A program made the position numbers and the translations under genes. From an uncultured virus (IMG/VR IMGVR_UViG_3300047564_001460) (lineage: Duplodnaviria; Heunggongvirae; Uroviricota; Caudoviricetes), in the IMG/VR virus record IMGVR_UViG_3300047564_001460: a DNA stretch of 20,000 nt; one strand, 5' to 3'. The notes below the pieces were generated by a model. That model had not been told where the DNA came from and searched no databases. It was given only the letters and a program-made list of their open reading frames with translations. Shown here piece by piece: positions 1,844 to 15,184 of the stretch. The number at the start of each line of letters is the position of its first letter. Position 1 is the stretch's first letter.

Positions 1844-3922
1844 CTATAGGGTTGGGAAGGCTGCTGTTGGTGTAGTAATTGTTCTTGCGTACCTAGTAAT
1901 ACGAAGATCATTAATGTAGCCAAGGAACGGTAAATCCCCGTTTGTATTTCTTGCCCCCACAACTGGAATGGCTCCAGATGGAGAGTAAATAGAACTAGCA
2001 AACGTATTTTGAGCCACCTGCGATCCTGCAACATAAATTTTTATGTTGTTAGTTCCACTCCCAGACCGAACCACACTAATGTAATTCCAAGCATTCGTAG
2101 TGAGCGTACCTCCATAAAGAACAAGTTGATAAGATACGCCATCACTTGACAATCCAATACCTACACTTGCACTTGAATTTATAGTGAAAATTATGCCATT
2201 AGTCGTAGCGTTTTCTCTTGAATAAATAACTTGAGTTCCAGAGGGTGTGGCTGTTATATAAATCCAAGCCTCAATCGTAAAATCAGATGCTTGGAAATTA
2301 AACATTGGTACGTCCACACCTCTTAAATAATCACCCGTCCCATCAAAGTACATACTCCCGCTTCCCCACTTAGCAGAGATAGCCGTACTTATCTGAGCAT
2401 TCCCCACCGTCTCCAAGTCATTCTTAGACGTAGCGTCATAGATACCGGCGTTGGTGAAGTTGAGGAGGAGGCTGGTGTTGGTGATGGCGGTGAGTGGTGC
2501 GGTGGGTGGAGTGAACTGTGTCCCGTTTGGATATACACAGCTTCCTTTTACTATACGGAAGTTACTAATGTAACCATTCCAATATTGAGCAGCATATTCT
2601 CCGACCCTACCTATTGACAATTGAGTCGAAGAGTCATTAATACTTGCCCCTGCAACATTAGAAGTCCCATCTTGAACCCCGTTGATGTATTGGCGTAATG
2701 TATTTCCATCTCTTACAAAAGCAATATGAACCCACTGGTTAGTAGGCATATCTGCTGTACTTGTACAAGTGTATCCTGTAGTTCCGCTATAAACGCCATT
2801 AAGAACTTTGTTCCCTGAACTATTGCCACCAAAAAATGAAATCGTTGACAGAGATAAAGAACTTGCGAATTGCCCATAAACACGTAAATCAGAACCACCT
2901 AAAAAATAAGTCCAATATTCAATCGTAAAATCACCGCTACCCATCGTAAACGCAGCGTTATCAGCAGTGCTTAACCAATCTGAGTTCCCATCAAAATACC
3001 CTGACCCACCATAGGTCGCAGCAGACCACGATGCAGTGGGGTTGAATGGGGAGAAGGCGACTACGGTTGGGGAGCCTGAAGGCGTAAGGGTAAATGGCGT
3101 GTTGCTTGTATTACCCTGCCCGTTGTCAATAAAACGATTTGACTGACAAGTAAGTAAAGATGTCTGCCCTGTTGTAATCGCGGATATGTTTGTTCCAGCG
3201 GACTGCGTAGCCGCAAGCGGTGAGGTTGGTGGTGTAAATGCCCCTGTGTAAACCGCAACGCCTTTAACAACTCTCGTGTTGCTTAAATAACCAGAAAAAG
3301 CATAACCAGAAAGAACTCCTGTTCCTTTTGCAATATAAGGGCTGTTTTGAGTTATATTTTGCGCTCTTGTACCTGAAGCTATACTTGCACCATCAAGATA
3401 TACGGTTAAAACATTTGAGGAATCTCTAACAACTGCTAAGTGATGCCATTGATTAGGCCAACTTGATGTTAATGAATAAGTTAAATCGTTTGTATAGCCA
3501 TCAATTCTTACAGTCAAAACACCTAAACTTGTAAAAATTCCAAAACTACCAGAGGTATTAACCGACCCTAAGTCATAAAACAATTGGTCAGAAGAATTTG
3601 AGCCAGTTGAATAAAACCAAGTTTCAAAAGTAAATTGCCCCGTTCCAAAAGCAAACGCAGCGTTGCTTGGTGCAGTAAGCCCTGAACTAGAAAAATAATT
3701 CCCCCACCCCGTCTGTGAGAACGGTGAGAACGTACCCTGTGTCGTGTTTCCGTTGCGGGTGATGGTGAAGTTATTGGTAGAACCGTCTAAGAACGTATTG
3801 TTCTGTGCGCCATTCGTACCGTTGCCAGGAAGCAGTAGCGTGGTGTATTCGTAGTAAGGGTCTGCGGTGACTGCGCTACCTGAGAAGATAGACGCAATCA
3901 TTGCTGTTAAGTTACCAGCCAT
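1844..3922 (-). CDS. Tail adhesin / receptor-binding protein with three LamG (concanavalin A-like) domains
   Basis: 692 aa with three repeats of the pattern FT(F/I)ExW..., W(H/V/N)(H/Y)(L/I)xxVR..., Y(L/I/V)xG..., GY(L/I)xxxR..., (F/I)TxPT. Confidence 0.9.
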   Translation of the reverse strand: MAGNLTAMIASIFSGSAVTADPYYEYTTLLLPGNGTNGAQNNTFLDGSTNNFTITRNGNTTQGTFSPFSQTGWGNYFSSSGLTAPSNAAFAFGTGQFTFETWFYSTGSNSSDQLFYDLGSVNTSGSFGIFTSLGVLTVRIDGYTNDLTYSLTSSWPNQWHHLAVVRDSSNVLTVYLDGASIASGTRAQNITQNSPYIAKGTGVLSGYAFSGYLSNTRVVKGVAVYTGAFTPPTSPLAATQSAGTNISAITTGQTSLLTCQSNRFIDNGQGNTSNTPFTLTPSGSPTVVAFSPFNPTASWSAATYGGSGYFDGNSDWLSTADNAAFTMGSGDFTIEYWTYFLGGSDLRVYGQFASSLSLSTISFFGGNSSGNKVLNGVYSGTTGYTCTSTADMPTNQWVHIAFVRDGNTLRQYINGVQDGTSNVAGASINDSSTQLSIGRVGEYAAQYWNGYISNFRIVKGSCVYPNGTQFTPPTAPLTAITNTSLLLNFTNAGIYDATSKNDLETVGNAQISTAISAKWGSGSMYFDGTGDYLRGVDVPMFNFQASDFTIEAWIYITATPSGTQVIYSRENATTNGIIFTINSSASVGIGLSSDGVSYQLVLYGGTLTTNAWNYISVVRSGSGTNNIKIYVAGSQVAQNTFASSIYSPSGAIPVVGARNTNGDLPFLGYINDLRITRYARTITTPTAAFPTL

Positions 3923-3923
3923 A

Positions 3924-4664
3924 TCAGGTCACTCCTGGTCCAGTAACCCACCAAGTATCTGTAGCAACTTTCAACAACGATGCCATACCCTTAGTAGCTA
4001 CAGTACGGTTTCCAGTAGCACCATTAGCTAACTGAAACGTTACACCAGCACCAGAGATCGTTAGTGCACCGCTGTTGTTGTTAAGTACTAGGATTGTAGT
4101 TCCTGTAGGAAATGCTACAGAAGCGTTGGTTGGTACTGTAAGCGTTGCTGTAGAGCCACCAGTAAAGTAAACATGATCACCAGCATCAGCCAGCGCAAGC
4201 GTGTAAGCAGTCGCACCACCAGAAACTTGTGGTGAGCCGATATAGCCCACTGAGCTAATAGGCATTGTGCTGTTCTTAAGCAACTTGCCCGTTGTGCCAT
4301 CGTAGACCGCAAGAACCGAGTCCGTAGAGCTAGCAGGGCCGACCACATCGCCAGCACCCGCTAAAGCCATAAGGCTCCAGTAAGTTGCGTTCGTGGGTAG
4401 ATTGCCGGTGGAGTTAAGTATGCAGATGTAAGATGAATTGTTGTAAGAAACAACGTCGTTCACTACATAAGCAGTTCCCGCGCTATACGCACCAAGCCAT
4501 TTCATACTTGCAGCGTAACCAAGACTATTCCAAGCCGTGGAACCATTACCAACCTTAAACCGCCCTGTGTCCGTTTCAGCGCCGATTTCCCCTGCCATCA
4601 AAGTAGGGTTAGCAGAAGTCCACTGAGCAGCAGTGCCATTACGGGTTTGAATTTGAACGGCCAT
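3924..4664 (-). CDS. Tail fibre protein with an Mtd_N-like N-terminal domain and a CBM5/12-like module
   Basis: IQTRNGTAAQWTSANPTLMAGEIGAETDTGRFKVGNGSTAWNSL matches the major tropism determinant N-terminal pattern. AYSAGTAYVVNDVVSYNNSSY...PTNATYW resembles a chitin-binding-type module, and GDVVGPASSTD is a common fibre motif. Confidence 0.85.
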   Translation of the reverse strand: MAVQIQTRNGTAAQWTSANPTLMAGEIGAETDTGRFKVGNGSTAWNSLGYAASMKWLGAYSAGTAYVVNDVVSYNNSSYICILNSTGNLPTNATYWSLMALAGAGDVVGPASSTDSVLAVYDGTTGKLLKNSTMPISSVGYIGSPQVSGGATAYTLALADAGDHVYFTGGSTATLTVPTNASVAFPTGTTILVLNNNSGALTISGAGVTFQLANGATGNRTVATKGMASLLKVATDTWWVTGPGVT

Positions 4665-7111: not shown

Positions 7112-7540
7112 TTATGTCGTCACTACCGTAACTGTACCAATATCGACGTTCAGAACCAAGTAATTTGGCGTAAGTCCGTTGTCATCCGATCGAGCACCGC
7201 CTACTGGACTCCAACCCCACTGAAACACCCTACTACCCGTCTCAGGAAATCCTACTCCATTTACTGTAGTACTAGAAGTCTGAAGAATCTGTAGTCCACT
7301 TTGCCCTGACTGATAGTAGCTTCGATCGGGGCGCGGTTCACGTAACGCCTGTGGATCATCTACTGGATACATACCAAGCTGCAACTGCGGTTGATCAGGA
7401 TCCCAACATTCAGGACAGACCAACAGATTATAGTTCTTGGTCTTTATGATTTCTCGGCGAAGCAATTTCAGTTTAAACCGCTGATCACAGCGATCGCACT
7501 GCGCAATTGCATTTTTACCTGAGGCAAATCGTTGACCCAT
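7112..7540 (-). CDS. Hypothetical protein with a CxxC...CxxC zinc-binding motif
   Basis: 142 aa with CDRC and CPEC motifs followed by DPDQPQL...DPQALREPRP. TAATG coupling to the upstream gene. Confidence 0.8.
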   Translation of the reverse strand: MGQRFASGKNAIAQCDRCDQRFKLKLLRREIIKTKNYNLLVCPECWDPDQPQLQLGMYPVDDPQALREPRPDRSYYQSGQSGLQILQTSSTTVNGVGFPETGSRVFQWGWSPVGGARSDDNGLTPNYLVLNVDIGTVTVVTT

Positions 7541-9714: not shown

Positions 9715-10269
9715 TCACATCACTCTGCCGCGAGTTTTACCCCGCTTAGCAATACCGTCGGCGCGACTAGACGCTGAATTTACTTTACCACCTCTTTTGT
9801 ACTCTTTGTCCTCGTTATTCTTAACCCTGCGCATAGCGTCTTCAACATCTTTGAAGGCTTGCTCTTGATCCACACGCTCTTGCGCTTCTTTGGTTAATTT
9901 AACTCTGTCGGACGGTACAGACGCTTTGTCGATAACTTTATCGATAGCTTTGCCAACTTTTGGATTGCGCTTGTCTATTTCTTCGCCAATAGCCCTGCCT
10001 GCCATAAAGGCAGCTTGAGCAGCACCCGCACGGCCCATAGTTCGTGAAAGCGCCCTACCAGCAGCTTCTTGGGTTTTAGCGCGATCCATGTAACCACGAT
10101 TACCTTCGCGGTTAGTTTTTTGATCTAACCCTTTTTTGATCCTATCAAGATCAGCTTCGTTAGAAGCCACTACATCTTCTTTGGGGTGGGGGGTTAAATC
10201 TTTTGCGTTGGTTTGGTTAGGCGACCTGTATATGTAGCCTTCCTTTTCCGGTCTGTTTAAGCGTCCCAT
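9715..10269 (-). CDS. Charged hypothetical protein (184 aa) with a C-terminal YKRGGKV...RADGIAKRGKTRG module
   Basis: Start reassigned to the ATG at 10269 (GAGGT RBS), which removes the overlap with the upstream gene. Confidence 0.75.
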   Translation of the reverse strand: MGRLNRPEKEGYIYRSPNQTNAKDLTPHPKEDVVASNEADLDRIKKGLDQKTNREGNRGYMDRAKTQEAAGRALSRTMGRAGAAQAAFMAGRAIGEEIDKRNPKVGKAIDKVIDKASVPSDRVKLTKEAQERVDQEQAFKDVEDAMRRVKNNEDKEYKRGGKVNSASSRADGIAKRGKTRGRVM

Positions 10270-10276
10270 AGTTACC

Positions 10277-10531
10277 TCAGCATTTCCAAGCACGAAGCGA
10301 TTTATTGATACGACTATCAGGGTCGTTGGCAGTTTTAGCACTTGTGAGTTTCTTCTTCATGCCTTTCATTCGAGCACAAAAAGAATCTCTGCGAGAACCG
10401 CCTTCCGGTTGCGGGGGCTTCAATCCAGGTTTACCCGGATTAGCTGCGTTATAAGAGGCTCGACCCTTGGCGTTCAAACCACCTTTAGGGTTTTTGCCTT
10501 CCTTGCGCTGCCATGCGGGGGACTTAGCCAT
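10277..10531 (-). CDS. Small basic protein, DUF6321-like
   Basis: 84 aa, AWQRKEGKNPKGGLNAKGRASY...RRDSFCARM...SRINKSLRAWKC. Family recalled, not searched. Confidence 0.75.
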   Translation of the reverse strand: MAKSPAWQRKEGKNPKGGLNAKGRASYNAANPGKPGLKPPQPEGGSRRDSFCARMKGMKKKLTSAKTANDPDSRINKSLRAWKC

Positions 10532-10811
10532 AATAAATAGTCACTGCGTCGGCACTACCGGTATCACAAAAGATACCGTTTTCAGCAAGGATACCTTCGC
10601 CAGGGATCACCACGGTATGGCATCCAGCAGCGGTCACACCCAATTTCAGTAGGACTTTTCCAGAAGCAGCAGAAGCATTATCGTAAAAGATAATAGGCTG
10701 AGCGCCCCCTGTACCTACAGCAATAAACGCACCTTTAATACGAGTGCGGGATGTAACTAACGCTGCGTCAGACTCGGTGTACGCCGATAGAACGTCATAT
10801 TGCATCGTCAT
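10524..10811 (-). CDS. Small beta-rich hypothetical virion protein
   Basis: 95 aa with AGGAG RBS and the pattern RTRIKG...YDNASAASG...IPGEGIL..NGI....TIYYG. Confidence 0.75.
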   Translation of the reverse strand: MTMQYDVLSAYTESDAALVTSRTRIKGAFIAVGTGGAQPIIFYDNASAASGKVLLKLGVTAAGCHTVVIPGEGILAENGIFCDTGSADAVTIYYG

Positions 10812-10824
10812 GATGCGCTCCTAA

Positions 10825-11202
10825 TTAGCTGGTAGCTATGATGCCAAGAGCTTTTAAATGCTTAACGATGTCGCCAATCGTATACGCTTTGGTACCAGAA
10901 CCGCCAGTAAACGTAGCAGCACTATCAACAGCCGTACCGGCACCAGCAGTAAAGCCAGAGGTTTGTCCAGTCGAAGCAGGCTGAGCTACGGGAGTAGCGC
11001 CATAAAGTCCAAACGTATCGGTAGCAGCATCACCAATGGCAGCATTGCCTGTGACAGTCAAAGTGCCCGTAGCAACGGAATCAACAACAGTAGCTGCGCC
11101 AAGCGTGGCATTAACAGTTACAGCGCCCGTGGAAGAATTAATAGAAATAGACTGGAAGCCATTTTGCGATCTTACTGGCCCAGTAAAGGTGGTGTTAGCC
11201 AT
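10825..11202 (-). CDS. Hypothetical virion protein (possible head fibre/decoration)
   Basis: 125 aa, T/G/A-rich, starting MANTTFTGPVRSQNGF, with GAGGA RBS. First gene after the major capsid terminator. Confidence 0.75.
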   Translation of the reverse strand: MANTTFTGPVRSQNGFQSISINSSTGAVTVNATLGAATVVDSVATGTLTVTGNAAIGDAATDTFGLYGATPVAQPASTGQTSGFTAGAGTAVDSAATFTGGSGTKAYTIGDIVKHLKALGIIATS

Positions 11203-11212
11203 CTTGATCCTC

Positions 11213-11283
11213 TACATGCGATTTTGGTATATCAGTCTGCATGTACGCCAGCCGGGACTGTCTGATATACCGGATAACCCCGG
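11213..11283 (-). ncRNA. Structured RNA with three interlocked helices; probable Mu-gpT-DE RNA motif
   Basis: Visible pairings: CCGGGGUU (11283-11276) with AGUCCCGG (11259-11252); GGUAUAUCAG (11271-11262) with CUGAUAUACC (11235-11226); UACAUGC (11245-11239) with GCAUGUA (11219-11213). The position downstream of a gpT-like capsid gene matches the described context of Mu-gpT-DE. Confidence 0.75.
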
Positions 11284-11292
11284 AATACCCCT

Positions 11293-11320
11293 AGTATAAA
11301 TAAAAAAGGGGGTTTTGCAA
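11293..11320 (-). promoter_or_regulatory. Sigma70-like promoter TTGCAA-N16-TATACT overlapping the terminator
   Basis: -35 at 11320-11315 and -10 at 11298-11293. The predicted start near 11286 is just upstream of the structured RNA. Confidence 0.6.
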
Positions 11321-11328
11321 CCCCCCTT
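11302..11328 (-). terminator. Rho-independent terminator after the major capsid gene
   Basis: Minus strand GGGGGTT-GCAA-AACCCCC-TTTTTT: a 7-bp stem, GNRA tetraloop and U-tract, about 20 nt after the stop codon. Confidence 0.85.
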
Positions 11329-11346
11329 CTTGACCGCATCGTTTGA

Positions 11347-12258
11347 TTAGGTCGAACCGCTCGATCCAAACATACCAAGAGGATCAGACCATCCGAACGA
11401 ATAACGCTCACGAGCTTTGTAGCGAACGTTGCCGGTATCGAAATCACCGTCCATTGAATTTTGTAACGGTGTACGAATGAAGTGCTTCATGCCGTTAGGT
11501 ACATCGGTCGTGAGGAACCATGCATTGCTATCGGTCAAGAAGTGGTTAACGGTGTAACCCTCTGGGATTGCGCCCATCTGCTTCAACGCGTTGATGTCGT
11601 TGTCGGCAGTTGCTACACGGAGTTCAGTGTCAAGCAAACGCTTAGCAGTAAACATCAGTGCAGGGGGAACAATCAGCTTCTTGGGCTTAGCTGCAATCAA
11701 CAGTCCACGTTCGTCCGTCCACGCAGCAATCGCGATAACAGCAGCCTCAAGAGAGGTTTCGTTAAGGTCAGCTTGAGTGGAAGGCGTGTTGCTGTTGGTG
11801 CCACCAGAGATTAGGGGGTGAGCCGTCGAGAATAAAGGCACTCCATCACCACCTGTATAGGCAGAGTTGAAGCCGTTGTTCAGGACCGCAGCAGCCTTAA
11901 CCTGTTTGGTGTAAGCCATTGCACGAGCCAAAGCCTTCGTATAACGAGCTGAAAGGCTGTCATACAGGTTATCTTCGATCGCTTCTTCAGTGATCGAGAA
12001 ACCAAGAGCAATGGTTTCGTGGTTGTAGCGAGTTGACCAAGCTTCTTGCGCGTTGTCATAAGCGATTGCGCTACCTTCGGCCTTGACCGGTGCAGCACTA
12101 AAGCCTGACAGCTTGGTTTCCTCTTCAAACGAACGCTCGGAGGTCTCGGTTTCGTAGATCTCTTTGTGTTCTTCGCCATAACGAGCGTACTCCATGCCGA
12201 ACAGTGCGTTCAGGCCGGGGAGAAGCTCTTTCAGTAGTTGTGCGCGTGAAATAGCCAT
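11347..12258 (-). CDS. Major capsid protein (HK97 fold; family usually annotated Mu-like gpT)
   Basis: 303 aa, MAISRAQLLKELLPGLNALFG...EEAIEDNLY...PKKLIVPPAL...YKARERYSFGWSDP. It lies after the scaffold gene and is followed by a terminator. Confidence 0.92.
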   Translation of the reverse strand: MAISRAQLLKELLPGLNALFGMEYARYGEEHKEIYETETSERSFEEETKLSGFSAAPVKAEGSAIAYDNAQEAWSTRYNHETIALGFSITEEAIEDNLYDSLSARYTKALARAMAYTKQVKAAAVLNNGFNSAYTGGDGVPLFSTAHPLISGGTNSNTPSTQADLNETSLEAAVIAIAAWTDERGLLIAAKPKKLIVPPALMFTAKRLLDTELRVATADNDINALKQMGAIPEGYTVNHFLTDSNAWFLTTDVPNGMKHFIRTPLQNSMDGDFDTGNVRYKARERYSFGWSDPLGMFGSSGST

Positions 12259-12270
12259 TTAATTTTCCCC

Positions 12271-13140
12271 TTATACGCCGGTAGCGAACTGATAGCTATG
12301 CCAGCCTTGATTCCACTTAACAAGAACTTCAGGATACCCAATAAAGGTAAACGAAGAACCAGAAGCGGCGGTCAAAGTTTTAGCTACAGTTACAGAAGTG
12401 CCGTTAACGTTAGTGACATAGTTGTAGTCACCAGGAAGTCCACCAGCAGTAGCGGCAGGACAAACAACCTGCATACCTGCTTGAAGACCCGTAACAGCAG
12501 CAGCCAAAATGATTGTGGTACTAGACGAAGATCCAGTGCCAGTCACGCTATAAGCGGTTTCGGGTACGACTGCAACCACACGGAAAGGAAGCGACGTGCC
12601 AGAGACACGAACGTTACCGGTACCGTTCGACGGACCATCACCAGACACAGCCATCTTGGAGTTACCAGTCGTAGTGCTACCAGCAACGCCAGTAATTGCA
12701 TATACGTTGGTTCCAACAAACGATTGGTTAGCGTAACCAATCGTAGAGGCGGTGATGCTTTCTGTGGAGGTCTGTCCAACCATAGCAACCCTAAACACAG
12801 CAGACGGATCGTCAACTACGAAAGCAACGATGTCGTTAGCAACAGTGTTTGCTGGGAAATACTGAGCATAAAGCTTTTGCCCAGTAGAAGCGTTGGTGTA
12901 CTGACATCCTACAAACACGCCAATTGCGCCAGCAATAACTGTGCTGGGGCTAGAAGCGGCAGAGTAGGTCGTTTTGATCAGAGTTCCATCAGTCGTCAGT
13001 TGGACTAAATCACCGTAAAAAAGACTGGAGGTGAGTCCGCTGGCGATAGGAATCTGTCGGGTTGCTCCCGCATACGGTAGGCCATTAAGTTCATTAATAG
13101 CTTTAAAACCGTAAGGAGCGTCAACAGTGGGGTAAGCCAT
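12271..13140 (-). CDS. Putative minor capsid / decoration protein
   Basis: 289 aa, DAPYGFK...LFYGDLV...GVFVGCQY...AFVVDDP, with AGGAG RBS, immediately upstream of the major capsid gene. Confidence 0.7.
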   Translation of the reverse strand: MAYPTVDAPYGFKAINELNGLPYAGATRQIPIASGLTSSLFYGDLVQLTTDGTLIKTTYSAASSPSTVIAGAIGVFVGCQYTNASTGQKLYAQYFPANTVANDIVAFVVDDPSAVFRVAMVGQTSTESITASTIGYANQSFVGTNVYAITGVAGSTTTGNSKMAVSGDGPSNGTGNVRVSGTSLPFRVVAVVPETAYSVTGTGSSSSTTIILAAAVTGLQAGMQVVCPAATAGGLPGDYNYVTNVNGTSVTVAKTLTAASGSSFTFIGYPEVLVKWNQGWHSYQFATGV

Positions 13141-13155
13141 TTGTTACTCCTAAGA

Positions 13156-13614
13156 TTAAGATCCTGTACCGAAAGTAACCTTGGAACGTTTCTCCGAAAA
13201 GAGCGGCATCCGAGGATCACTTTCCCTTAAAAAGTTATTGTCTACAGATTCCATCTGAGCTTTATTCTGCTTAGCGTAATACTCGGATCGCTGCTTCAAA
13301 AACTCCGCTGGAATACGACAGAGCAATAAACCACCCACTTCTACGCCGCCCTTAAAGCGACCTTCGGTGGAAGCGTGCATCATAAGCTCGGGATATTCTT
13401 CTGCTTTGCAGGGTTCATATCCTTCACGAAATTTGGAAGACACGTTTGACGGATCGGCCACTCCCATCGTACTTATACGAATGTAGCGGTGTACCCAGCC
13501 CTCGCGAGGGTCAGGCATTGGTAACGTCTCTGGCGGTCTCCAAGCTGTGGGCCGGAGAACTGCTTGCCTAGTAGACTCTTCGCGGGAACCGCGCTCTTGT
13601 TTACCTTGATCCAT
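13156..13614 (-). CDS. Hypothetical protein of the head module
   Basis: 152 aa, W.PP..LP.P....G...RYIR...EGYEP...VGGLLLCRIP, located between the scaffold and capsid genes. Confidence 0.8.
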   Translation of the reverse strand: MDQGKQERGSREESTRQAVLRPTAWRPPETLPMPDPREGWVHRYIRISTMGVADPSNVSSKFREGYEPCKAEEYPELMMHASTEGRFKGGVEVGGLLLCRIPAEFLKQRSEYYAKQNKAQMESVDNNFLRESDPRMPLFSEKRSKVTFGTGS

Positions 13615-14586: not shown

Positions 14587-14994
14587 TTACGCAGCGCGGG
14601 TAATACCACGCGGATCTTCTACAACCGCCTCAACGCTATCGTCGTTGATAATGCGGAACTCCCGACCGTGAATCTTTAGTCGCGTACCACTGTTGGGGCG
14701 AACAATTACAAAGTCCCCTTCCTTACAAGACGGTCCGCTAGGAAATCTTGTTGGGTCTTTATAAGCATCCGGTCCAATCTTTACGACAAACAACACGGGA
14801 GTAAGAACTTCCTCGTAATACATGGTTTTGTCGGACTTAATAATCCCAATTTCACTCTCCGCATACTCTTCCATCGCCTCGGGGACGACACAAAGTAAAT
14901 GGTAAGTTCTTGGGTCAGGCAACTGCTTCGCTTTTTGTTCGGCTGATTTATTTAGCAAGCCGGACAGATCGACCGCAGTGGTTAAGTCAGTCAT
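14587..14994 (-). CDS. groES: GroES/Cpn10-like co-chaperonin
   Basis: P..Y.LL...SEIGII...VVKIGP...CKEGDFV...GTRLKIHGREFRIINDDSVEAVV follows the Cpn10 pattern. Start reassigned to the ATG at 14994 (GGAGA RBS). Confidence 0.85.
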   Translation of the reverse strand: MTDLTTAVDLSGLLNKSAEQKAKQLPDPRTYHLLCVVPEAMEEYAESEIGIIKSDKTMYYEEVLTPVLFVVKIGPDAYKDPTRFPSGPSCKEGDFVIVRPNSGTRLKIHGREFRIINDDSVEAVVEDPRGITRAA

Positions 14995-15184
14995 CAGATT
15001 TCTCCAAATGTTGCACGAGGTCATTGATAATGGATTCTGCTTGGTCTAGACCCCGGATAGTCCCGCAGATAAAACGGTAGGCTGCATAATCATCAGCTCT
15101 ACCGGTCTGTAAAAATGCAGACTGCTCCTTGCGGAGCTTGTCGATCTCCCTCGCAACGTGAGCGAGGACTTTTATTTCATTCAA
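14987..15184 (-). CDS. Small helical hypothetical protein (65 aa)
   Basis: L..G.ADDY..Y....G.IRGL motif. It overlaps both the portal stop (ATGA) and the groES start. Confidence 0.75.
   Translation of the reverse strand: MNEIKVLAHVAREIDKLRKEQSAFLQTGRADDYAAYRFICGTIRGLDQAESIINDLVQHLEKSDD

Follow-up and report, generated by a model that had tools for sequence, protein, structure and literature searches.

The 20,000-nucleotide stretch of uncultured caudovirus DNA analysed here (the window) contains on its minus strand a 71-nt four-helix double pseudoknot (11283-11213), which is a long structural variant of the Mu-gpT-DE family and occurs in HTVC023P-type phages, including cultured ones. Comparison of homologues demonstrates four covarying helices around a small conserved junction, and a constant location, with a promoter-like box on one side and the Shine-Dalgarno (SD) sequence of a single gene family on the other. 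The element most probably controls translation initiation of the cement gene that follows it, with the folded pseudoknot hindering 30S loading. Apparently new are the long form with its helix D and 5' arm, the pseudoknot at the start codon in the short form and the association with a cement gene.

Architecture and conservation of the long form

The element, on the minus strand, is built from a main stem of 10 bp, a hairpin of 3 bp, an arm that forms 5 bp with the hairpin loop and a 6-7-bp arm that reaches up to the SD. Arm A (5 nt, 11279-11283) pairs with the loop of hairpin D to form pseudoknot 1. It is followed by the 5' strand of the main stem B, or P1 (11262-11271), and by hairpin D, or P2 (11249-11260), in which 3 bp (11260-11258 with 11251-11249) enclose a 6-nt loop, A' (11257-11252). 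The junction strand (11236-11248) comprises a conserved A-C, arm C (11245-11239) and a conserved (A/C)-G-A, and leads into the 3' strand of stem B (11226-11235). Arm C' (11213-11219) pairs with arm C as pseudoknot 2 and ends at the GAGGA SD of the regulated gene (11208-11212), whose AUG is at 11202; P1 ends 23 nt 5' of this AUG.

The preliminary description of this DNA had recognised six segments in the order A-B-A'-C-B'-C' between 11283 and 11213. These are present as claimed: B/B' is a perfect 10-bp helix, C/C' is a perfect 7-bp helix, and the last helix adjoins GAGGA. The A/A' helix, put at 8 bp in that description, is really 5 bp long (among the 72 homologues whose capsid gene is complete, positions one to five pair in every case and the sixth in 28), and the innermost bases assigned to it belong to the 3-bp helix D, which had been missed. 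The window has 22 Watson-Crick pairs in this six-segment arrangement; of 5000 dinucleotide shuffles, none exceeds 18 and 4965 lack the arrangement altogether. Plain minimum free energy folding of 11195-11350 gives an unremarkable z-score (-1.93), as expected for an element that is pseudoknotted.

Homologues were collected with a covariance model built from helices B and D only, in which arms A and C are unpaired, and with a loose descriptor, which gives many chance matches in coding DNA; the requirement for a start of the downstream protein family kept 140 of 149. Five loci with truncated or atypical hairpins (L010, L011, L017, L026 and L028) were left out first, and 147 instances were reduced to 82. 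In these 82 non-redundant homologues the four helices are real, conserved and covarying, as judged from aligned and unaligned sequences, and the covariation that the preliminary description had proposed looking for is present in every helix.

All ten pairs of stem B show changes on both sides in an unfitted MAFFT alignment of 62 rows, and the covariation score of the stem is matched in none of 500 shuffles; the covariation is seen on the alignment and on a capsid tree. Summed over its pairs, stem B holds 56 G-U pairs against 13 A-C mismatches, an excess that points to an element acting as RNA, on the coding strand. Hairpin D is Watson-Crick in 82 of 82 homologues, with an invariant C-G first pair, four pair types at the second position and three at the third.

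MAFFT lost the register of arms A and C', so that tool-based pair counts are restricted to B, D and partly C (where pairing of 67.9% is depressed by misalignment) and the evidence for arm A comes from scripts and not from the alignment. In an alignment-free test, arm A and the D loop of the same RNA form 5 or more Watson-Crick pairs in all 82 homologues, compared with 18.7% for non-cognate loops and 0 of 82 in an upstream control stretch. For arm C and the 3' region of the same RNA, 5 or more such pairs form in 80 of 82, compared with 28.1% for non-cognate partners and 2 of 82 in the control stretch. The arm-pairing counts are biased upward for members L086-L163, which came from a descriptor demanding 4 and 5 pairs; capsid-picked members are free of that demand. 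All five arm A pairs show double changes. On the capsid tree (a quick search with unsure long branches, covering 72 homologues, since the capsid gene of the other 10 is incomplete), each pair underwent independent double changes 1-17 times in arm A, 0-24 times in D and, for the four pairs at the core of C, 19-22 times. In these per-pair counts the registers of arms A and C were picked by best run, so that their 100% pairing figures lean upward and the alignment-free test is the controlled one.

Conserved positions number only about eight altogether, and few of the unpaired bases are conserved: an A before D, the A-C after D (A in 78 and C in 79 of 82) and the (A/C)-G-A before B' (A in 70, G in 72 and A in 74 of 82). 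The window has a minor variant, G, where the first A after D is usual. The SD begins at most 2 nt past C' in 69 of 82 homologues, overlapping C' in 12 of 82, and the spacing is 3-7 nt in 13 of 82.

Arm A can also pair with a loop mimic, a copy of the D loop (11270-11273), in an alternative 5' hairpin of one sub-lineage. The mimic offers 4 bp or more in 35 of 82 homologues, with compensation in L024 and L039. That same count of 35 rules out an alternative 5' hairpin as a universal feature. In stepwise folding of the window this hairpin (11270-11283) is the earliest to form, and it may be a folding intermediate or an open state.

Several other loci depart from the usual architecture. An intermediate form (L416:2438-2521) combines a long P1 and C/C' pairing with a hairpin D that has a 4-nt loop, and lacks arm A. 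Pelagiphage-type long variants have a D of 2 bp with an 8-nt loop (L285:3884-4053, L288:3217-3531 and L451:2965-3054); arm C' extends into the SD in L285 and L288, two loci that were missed by the long-form model and identified by eye, and L451 scored 24 bits. At L085:588-713 stem B is joined straight onto the end of the capsid gene and the terminator, promoter and arm A are gone, which reflects either a deletion or a misassembly.

Kinship with Mu-gpT-DE and the short form

The Mu-gpT-DE motif (RF03012) was reportedly described by Weinberg et al. in 2017. Its Rfam model has 9 pairs and stops at the AUG, and the family is typed as sRNA. The name is absent from the main text of PMC5737381, and in the literature searched it was found in one work, PMC7657543, where the supplement, in its consulted part, lists it under loop and non-canonical covariations and not under new pseudoknots. 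No description of the long form was found in the literature searched; the supplement of PMC5737381 might hold one. Four supplement files of PMC10690425 contain no long-form match; the 8,495 anonymous IMG/VR candidates of that work may include the long form.

Like the Rfam motif, the element of the window sits downstream of a Mu gpT-like capsid gene. The preliminary description had placed it in this family by name. The kinship holds, with the same genomic slot and a common core, but the name does not, because the Rfam comparison proposed there gives no RF03012 match at the 49-bit threshold in the window or in 20 of 20 long-form loci, and none above the cut-off in 5 of 5 records. As a positive control, 10 of 10 short-form loci score 60-76 bits; these were the ones tested of 120 members fetched with the RF03012 consensus, and all 10 exceed the threshold. 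At Rfam gathering and E-value thresholds the window gives only chance matches to the terminator, with no riboswitch or ribozyme family among them. In the converse search, the long-form model gave one chance match on 55 of the 120 RF03012-type loci, so neither covariance model detects the other form.

Both forms nevertheless share one plan: P1, a single A, a hairpin opening with C-G, A-C, a pairing strand and (A/C)-G-A. RF03012 has 53 positions, a 4-bp P1 whose 3' strand begins the SD, and an end at the AUG; its longer P2 has a free loop, arm A is lacking, and the junction strand pairs with the start codon. In contrast, the long form has a 10-bp P1 and a 3-bp P2 whose loop is bound by the 5' arm, and its partner strand lies upstream of the SD. 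In principle the second pseudoknot is common to both, and each form finishes in one on the initiation region. The short form occupies the same slot, with a homologous capsid gene (59-84% identity to that of the window) in 116 of 120 loci and the order capsid, terminator, -10 box, motif at +1, SD and the same downstream gene family. The two forms interleave on the capsid tree, with 7-9 changes, 2-3 of them forced by starred branches, and therefore look interchangeable.

The pairing of the short-form junction strand with the start codon and codon 2 was predicted beforehand. A scan for an altered junction base returned Met-Gly starts in place of Met-Ala, and one Met-Ser start with two compensated pairs. 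Among 214 distinct short forms, the junction base and codon-2 position 2 are G-C in 164, C-G in 49 and mismatched in 1, while position 1 gives C-G in 213 and U-A in 1; the third pair, at the wobble position, is poor (57 U-U of 214). Because of the relatedness of these rows, the counts do not stand for independent events, but the Met-Gly genes span several protein subtypes. The gap from P1 to the AUG is 7-10 nt in 214 of 214. By this covariation, pairing in the short form covers the SD and spans the start codon, in a pseudoknot that extends beyond the Rfam model. A short form with an extended P2 at L433:2455-2523 has a junction strand that fits its Met-Gly start, a codon-2 covariation that looks independent.

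Genomic setting and the cement gene

The minus strand of the window encodes the head-to-tail region of a phage, with profile matches to terminase, portal, GroES, capsid and adaptor genes. The major capsid protein gene (303 aa, 11347-12258, minus strand) is a separate transcription unit 5' of the element, which starts 64 nt past the capsid stop. It matches Pfam Phage_capsid_4 (60.8 bits) and Mu-like_gpT (PF10124; 41.9 bits, cut-off 20.1), both above their cut-offs, as well as phrog_371. Its product is 64-66% identical to the capsid proteins of HTVC023P and HTVC027P, and 64-72% identical over a set that comprises HTVC023P, HTVC027P, DSL-LC04 and MinM2/Pag-Yong1. Among solved structures, neither the capsid nor the cement protein has a sequence match. 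Other minus-strand genes of the window include a phage GroES gene (14587-15024) between portal and putative scaffold genes, a gene for a stand-alone DUF6321 protein (10277-10531) and, at the far end, genes for tail-fibre-like and large beta-rich proteins (3924-4664 and 1844-3922). In the same operon, 3' of the element, a 142-aa protein with two CxxC pairs (7112-7540, minus strand) has only a weak phrog_28581 match and is a candidate zinc-binding regulator.

An intrinsic-terminator-like hairpin was located after the capsid gene by consensus scan (11302-11331, minus strand) and presumably acts as a terminator; comparable hairpins are visible 3' of the capsid stop in most homologues. A predicted sigma-70-type promoter (11293-11320, minus strand) has its -35 box (11320-11315) within this hairpin and its -10 box at 11298-11293. 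A -10-like box stands 6-13 nt 5' of arm A in 69 of 82 non-redundant homologues, whereas two control windows show one in 9 of 79 and 7 of 82, and an A is found seven bases past the -10 hexamer in 68 of 82. Given the conserved box and this A, the RNA most likely begins at 11286, about 3 nt before arm A. Four RNA runs, all consisting of contigs, were compared with the window. One metatranscriptome contig is identical to it over 11132-11332; being an assembled contig, it is informative on neither transcription nor transcript ends. The consensus scan of 10000-13500 finds its sole terminator-like site upstream of the element and none 3' of it, and the element opens a long operon of neck and tail genes.

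The preliminary description had tied the element to the capsid gene, an attachment that breaks down in the homologues. With the B and D covariance model, the long form was found in 78 of 80 loci picked through the downstream protein; of the other two, one has the short form and one matched only the C-terminal half of that protein. It was found in 74 of 80 loci picked through the capsid protein, a figure that is partly so by construction, as 61 of the 62 model rows come from these and the downstream-picked loci. The six capsid-picked loci without a match show no start of the downstream family in the fetched DNA, as seen with a start pattern that also missed two positive loci. At least 21 capsid-picked loci have 328-1293 nt between the capsid stop and the element, mostly occupied by other genes, either homing-endonuclease-like ORFs (by eye) or genes on the opposite strand. 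Across these insertions the element keeps its promoter box and its own gene. From this gene order, the element travels with the downstream cement gene and not with the capsid stop. The gap between terminator and promoter appears as an insertion hot spot for ORFs of 190-310 aa that by eye resemble HNH or GIY-YIG homing endonucleases (L006, L009, L011, L017, L023, L036, L037, L047, L050, L055, L071, L074 and L080).

The element is single-copy in all five genomes searched, with one match in the window. Exact-pattern scans of 185,579 GTDB genomes returned 13 full elements (7 short and 6 long), each of them before a cement-family gene, and none before a metabolic gene, in scans of a kind that divergent copies would escape; two further pattern matches score only across the pattern itself. 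The GTDB capsid matches come from phage contigs that were binned with MAGs from many different phyla, and they carry no host signal. Among cultured phages, HTVC023P and DSL-LC04 have the long form and CRP-902 has the short form.

The regulated gene (10825-11202, minus strand) encodes a 125-aa protein assigned to a capsid cement/decoration family through phrog_36974 on residues 1-50, with a conserved N-terminal peptide and a fibre-like variable body. The corresponding gene of DSL-LC04 is labelled 'cement protein' in GenBank. A family member of 150 aa with the same N-terminus (L187) folds like the cement proteins of Pam1 (Z 12.2, rmsd 2.4, 114 aligned), KHP40/KHP30 (KHP40, Z 11.4) and GP4 (Z 10.8). 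The monomer model of the 125-aa protein, which has only the N-terminus in common with L187, gave no solved-fold match in one Foldseek search, and the protein has no tblastn match among GenBank phages. A homotrimer model scores 0.83 (best control 0.00), the runs agree in at least 79% of contacts, and pLDDT is at least 85; in the calibration, from which a three-copy job differs, this score mark was attained for 20 of the 30 solved pairs and for one of the 23 single chains. The modelling is consistent with a homotrimer of the fibre-like decoration type. Across the family the bodies vary greatly (jelly-roll or fibre-like, about 55-255 aa), and the common part is a short N-terminal peptide with few basic residues; protein subtypes do not strictly follow RNA subtypes.

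A different leader precedes a 'minor capsid protein' gene at L284:3401-3510 (Pag-Yong1; MinM2 has the same capsid score). It has a 9-bp stem whose loop is able to pair with the SD-spacer directly 5' of the AUG, gives no match to the long-form model, and is possibly an analogous switch.

Possible function of the leader

The reading that fits best among those offered by the preliminary description is a translational switch or protein-binding operator. The element would be the 5' leader of the cement/decoration mRNA and would work as a translational operator: transcription would start from about 11286, and the folded pseudoknot would hinder 30S loading. Free cement protein, building up once mature capsids had no empty sites left, would bind and stabilise the closed fold, a feedback by which cement synthesis would keep pace with that of capsid although the two come from separately transcribed units. 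That the leader is a feedback-repressed operator with free cement protein as its ligand is suggested by analogy, and we put its chances slightly short of even. To our knowledge, how phages balance capsid against cement from separate transcripts has been little studied. According to PMC9698820, the GP4 capsid carries 540 cement per 540 capsid copies, and Pam1 cement attaches to the capsid through an N-terminal loop. With cement and capsid needed at about 1:1, and yet cement on a separate promoter behind a terminator, feedback would be useful. However, the variability of the cement body, the scarcity of basic residues in its N-terminal peptide and the loose tracking of RNA subtypes weaken the step that makes cement the ligand, and occlusion may be mild because the long-form pseudoknot mostly abuts the SD, with overlap only in the 12 of 82 homologues noted above. 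At a broader level, it is an evenly balanced proposition that these elements form a phage RNA switch family, with two interchangeable architectures on one three-helix junction, that counts capsid assembly through cement, capsid or a small ligand and in which the pseudoknot shuts the ribosome site and co-evolves with codon 2.

As in operators of the gp32 and S15 type, the leader pseudoknot lies in or next to the initiation region. In phage T4, gp32 represses its own synthesis once the protein exceeds its primary ligand (PMC3014915), and its pseudoknot operator is also treated in PMC535899. T4 gene 32 resembles the element in having a phage mRNA-leader pseudoknot upstream of the ribosome site. 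Its simple H-type knot lies 67 nt upstream and nucleates filament growth of an ssDNA-binding protein, whereas the element is a four-helix knot that touches the SD of a virion structural gene. In 2010 the gene 32 knot was considered possibly the sole case of viral pseudoknot autoregulation (review PMC3014915). The alternative 5' hairpin of 35 of 82 long forms recalls the pseudoknot/double-hairpin equilibrium of E. coli rpsO, in which S15 binds the pseudoknot only and represses its own synthesis (PMC3985624). However, S15 is a ribosomal protein whose operator mimics its rRNA site, the topology differs, and the rpsO family has no Rfam match in the window. The scaffolding protein of P22, a head-assembly protein, controls its own synthesis; we know of no conserved pseudoknot family there, and the gene concerned encodes scaffold and not cement.

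The same translational block could instead be opened or closed at the junction by another phage product, such as capsid protein, procapsids or a late activator, so that cement is delayed until heads exist. Such a role is unlikely, if still worth weighing. The capsid protein (59-94%) is, like the RNA core, far more conserved than the cement body, and a host-type promoter would fire early, so that a delay would be needed; yet no candidate RNA-binding activator was found, and the element follows the cement gene rather than the capsid gene.

We give a similarly low standing to a leader without any ligand, whose fixed fold would shield the 5' end from exonucleolytic or 5'-end-dependent decay and set a constant initiation rate while the conserved adenines only pack helices. 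In both forms pairing begins only a few bases from the predicted +1, the conserved positions are few, and the alternative fold is far from universal. Protection, however, leaves the AUG pairing of the short form unexplained, as well as the codon-2 covariation in which residue 2 itself changes, and a plain hairpin would shield equally well. A 5'-protective role is possible as a side function of a translational operator.

A riboswitch, in which a small molecule, an ion or temperature acts at the three-helix junction to lock the pseudoknot over the initiation region, is quite improbable. Pseudoknots that cover the SD are a common riboswitch output. A pseudoknot together with a multistem junction and conserved unpaired bases also fits the profile of sophisticated RNAs (main text of PMC5737381). 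However, invariant bases are few, no Rfam riboswitch matches, and the placement of all 13 full GTDB elements from the exact-pattern scans before cement-family genes makes this reading less likely.

The element can also be compared with put RNA, as an RNA that would modify RNA polymerase for read-through of the neck and tail operon. A length of about 70 nt and a place just behind a promoter, where a long operon begins, suit this comparison, but the SD and AUG pairing of the short form points to translation, and we consider a put-like role highly improbable.

Equally remote is a self-cleaving ribozyme that matures the transcript, one of the options that the preliminary description had raised: a compact double pseudoknot with conserved junction bases would suit it, but no Rfam ribozyme matches, the short form lacks arm A and, with its own promoter and a +1 only a few bases before the fold, the leader offers nothing 5' to remove. 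The phi29 pRNA is a free transcript with complementary loops that pair between molecules, in a head-related context. A comparable free RNA, with loops pairing into a ring for head assembly or packaging, was another such option and is the least probable of all; both pseudoknot pairings are possible in trans and head genes are adjacent, but the sole terminator-like site in 10000-13500 lies upstream, and the element continues into the SD and AUG, with coding sequence as the short-form partner strand. The element is part of an mRNA leader, and its short form pairs into coding sequence, which makes ribozyme and pRNA roles alike unlikely.

If such a switch family is real, no earlier feedback operator made of structured RNA is known, within the literature searched, for a decoration protein of the virion, and Mu-gpT-DE would acquire a function in marine phages that are among the most abundant. 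The analysis links this orphan Rfam motif, named after its upstream gene, to the gene downstream and offers a mechanism that can be tested; a long double-pseudoknot form, missed by Rfam, is present in cultured phages. As a compact and naturally diversified switch, the leader is a potential part for synthetic translational control.
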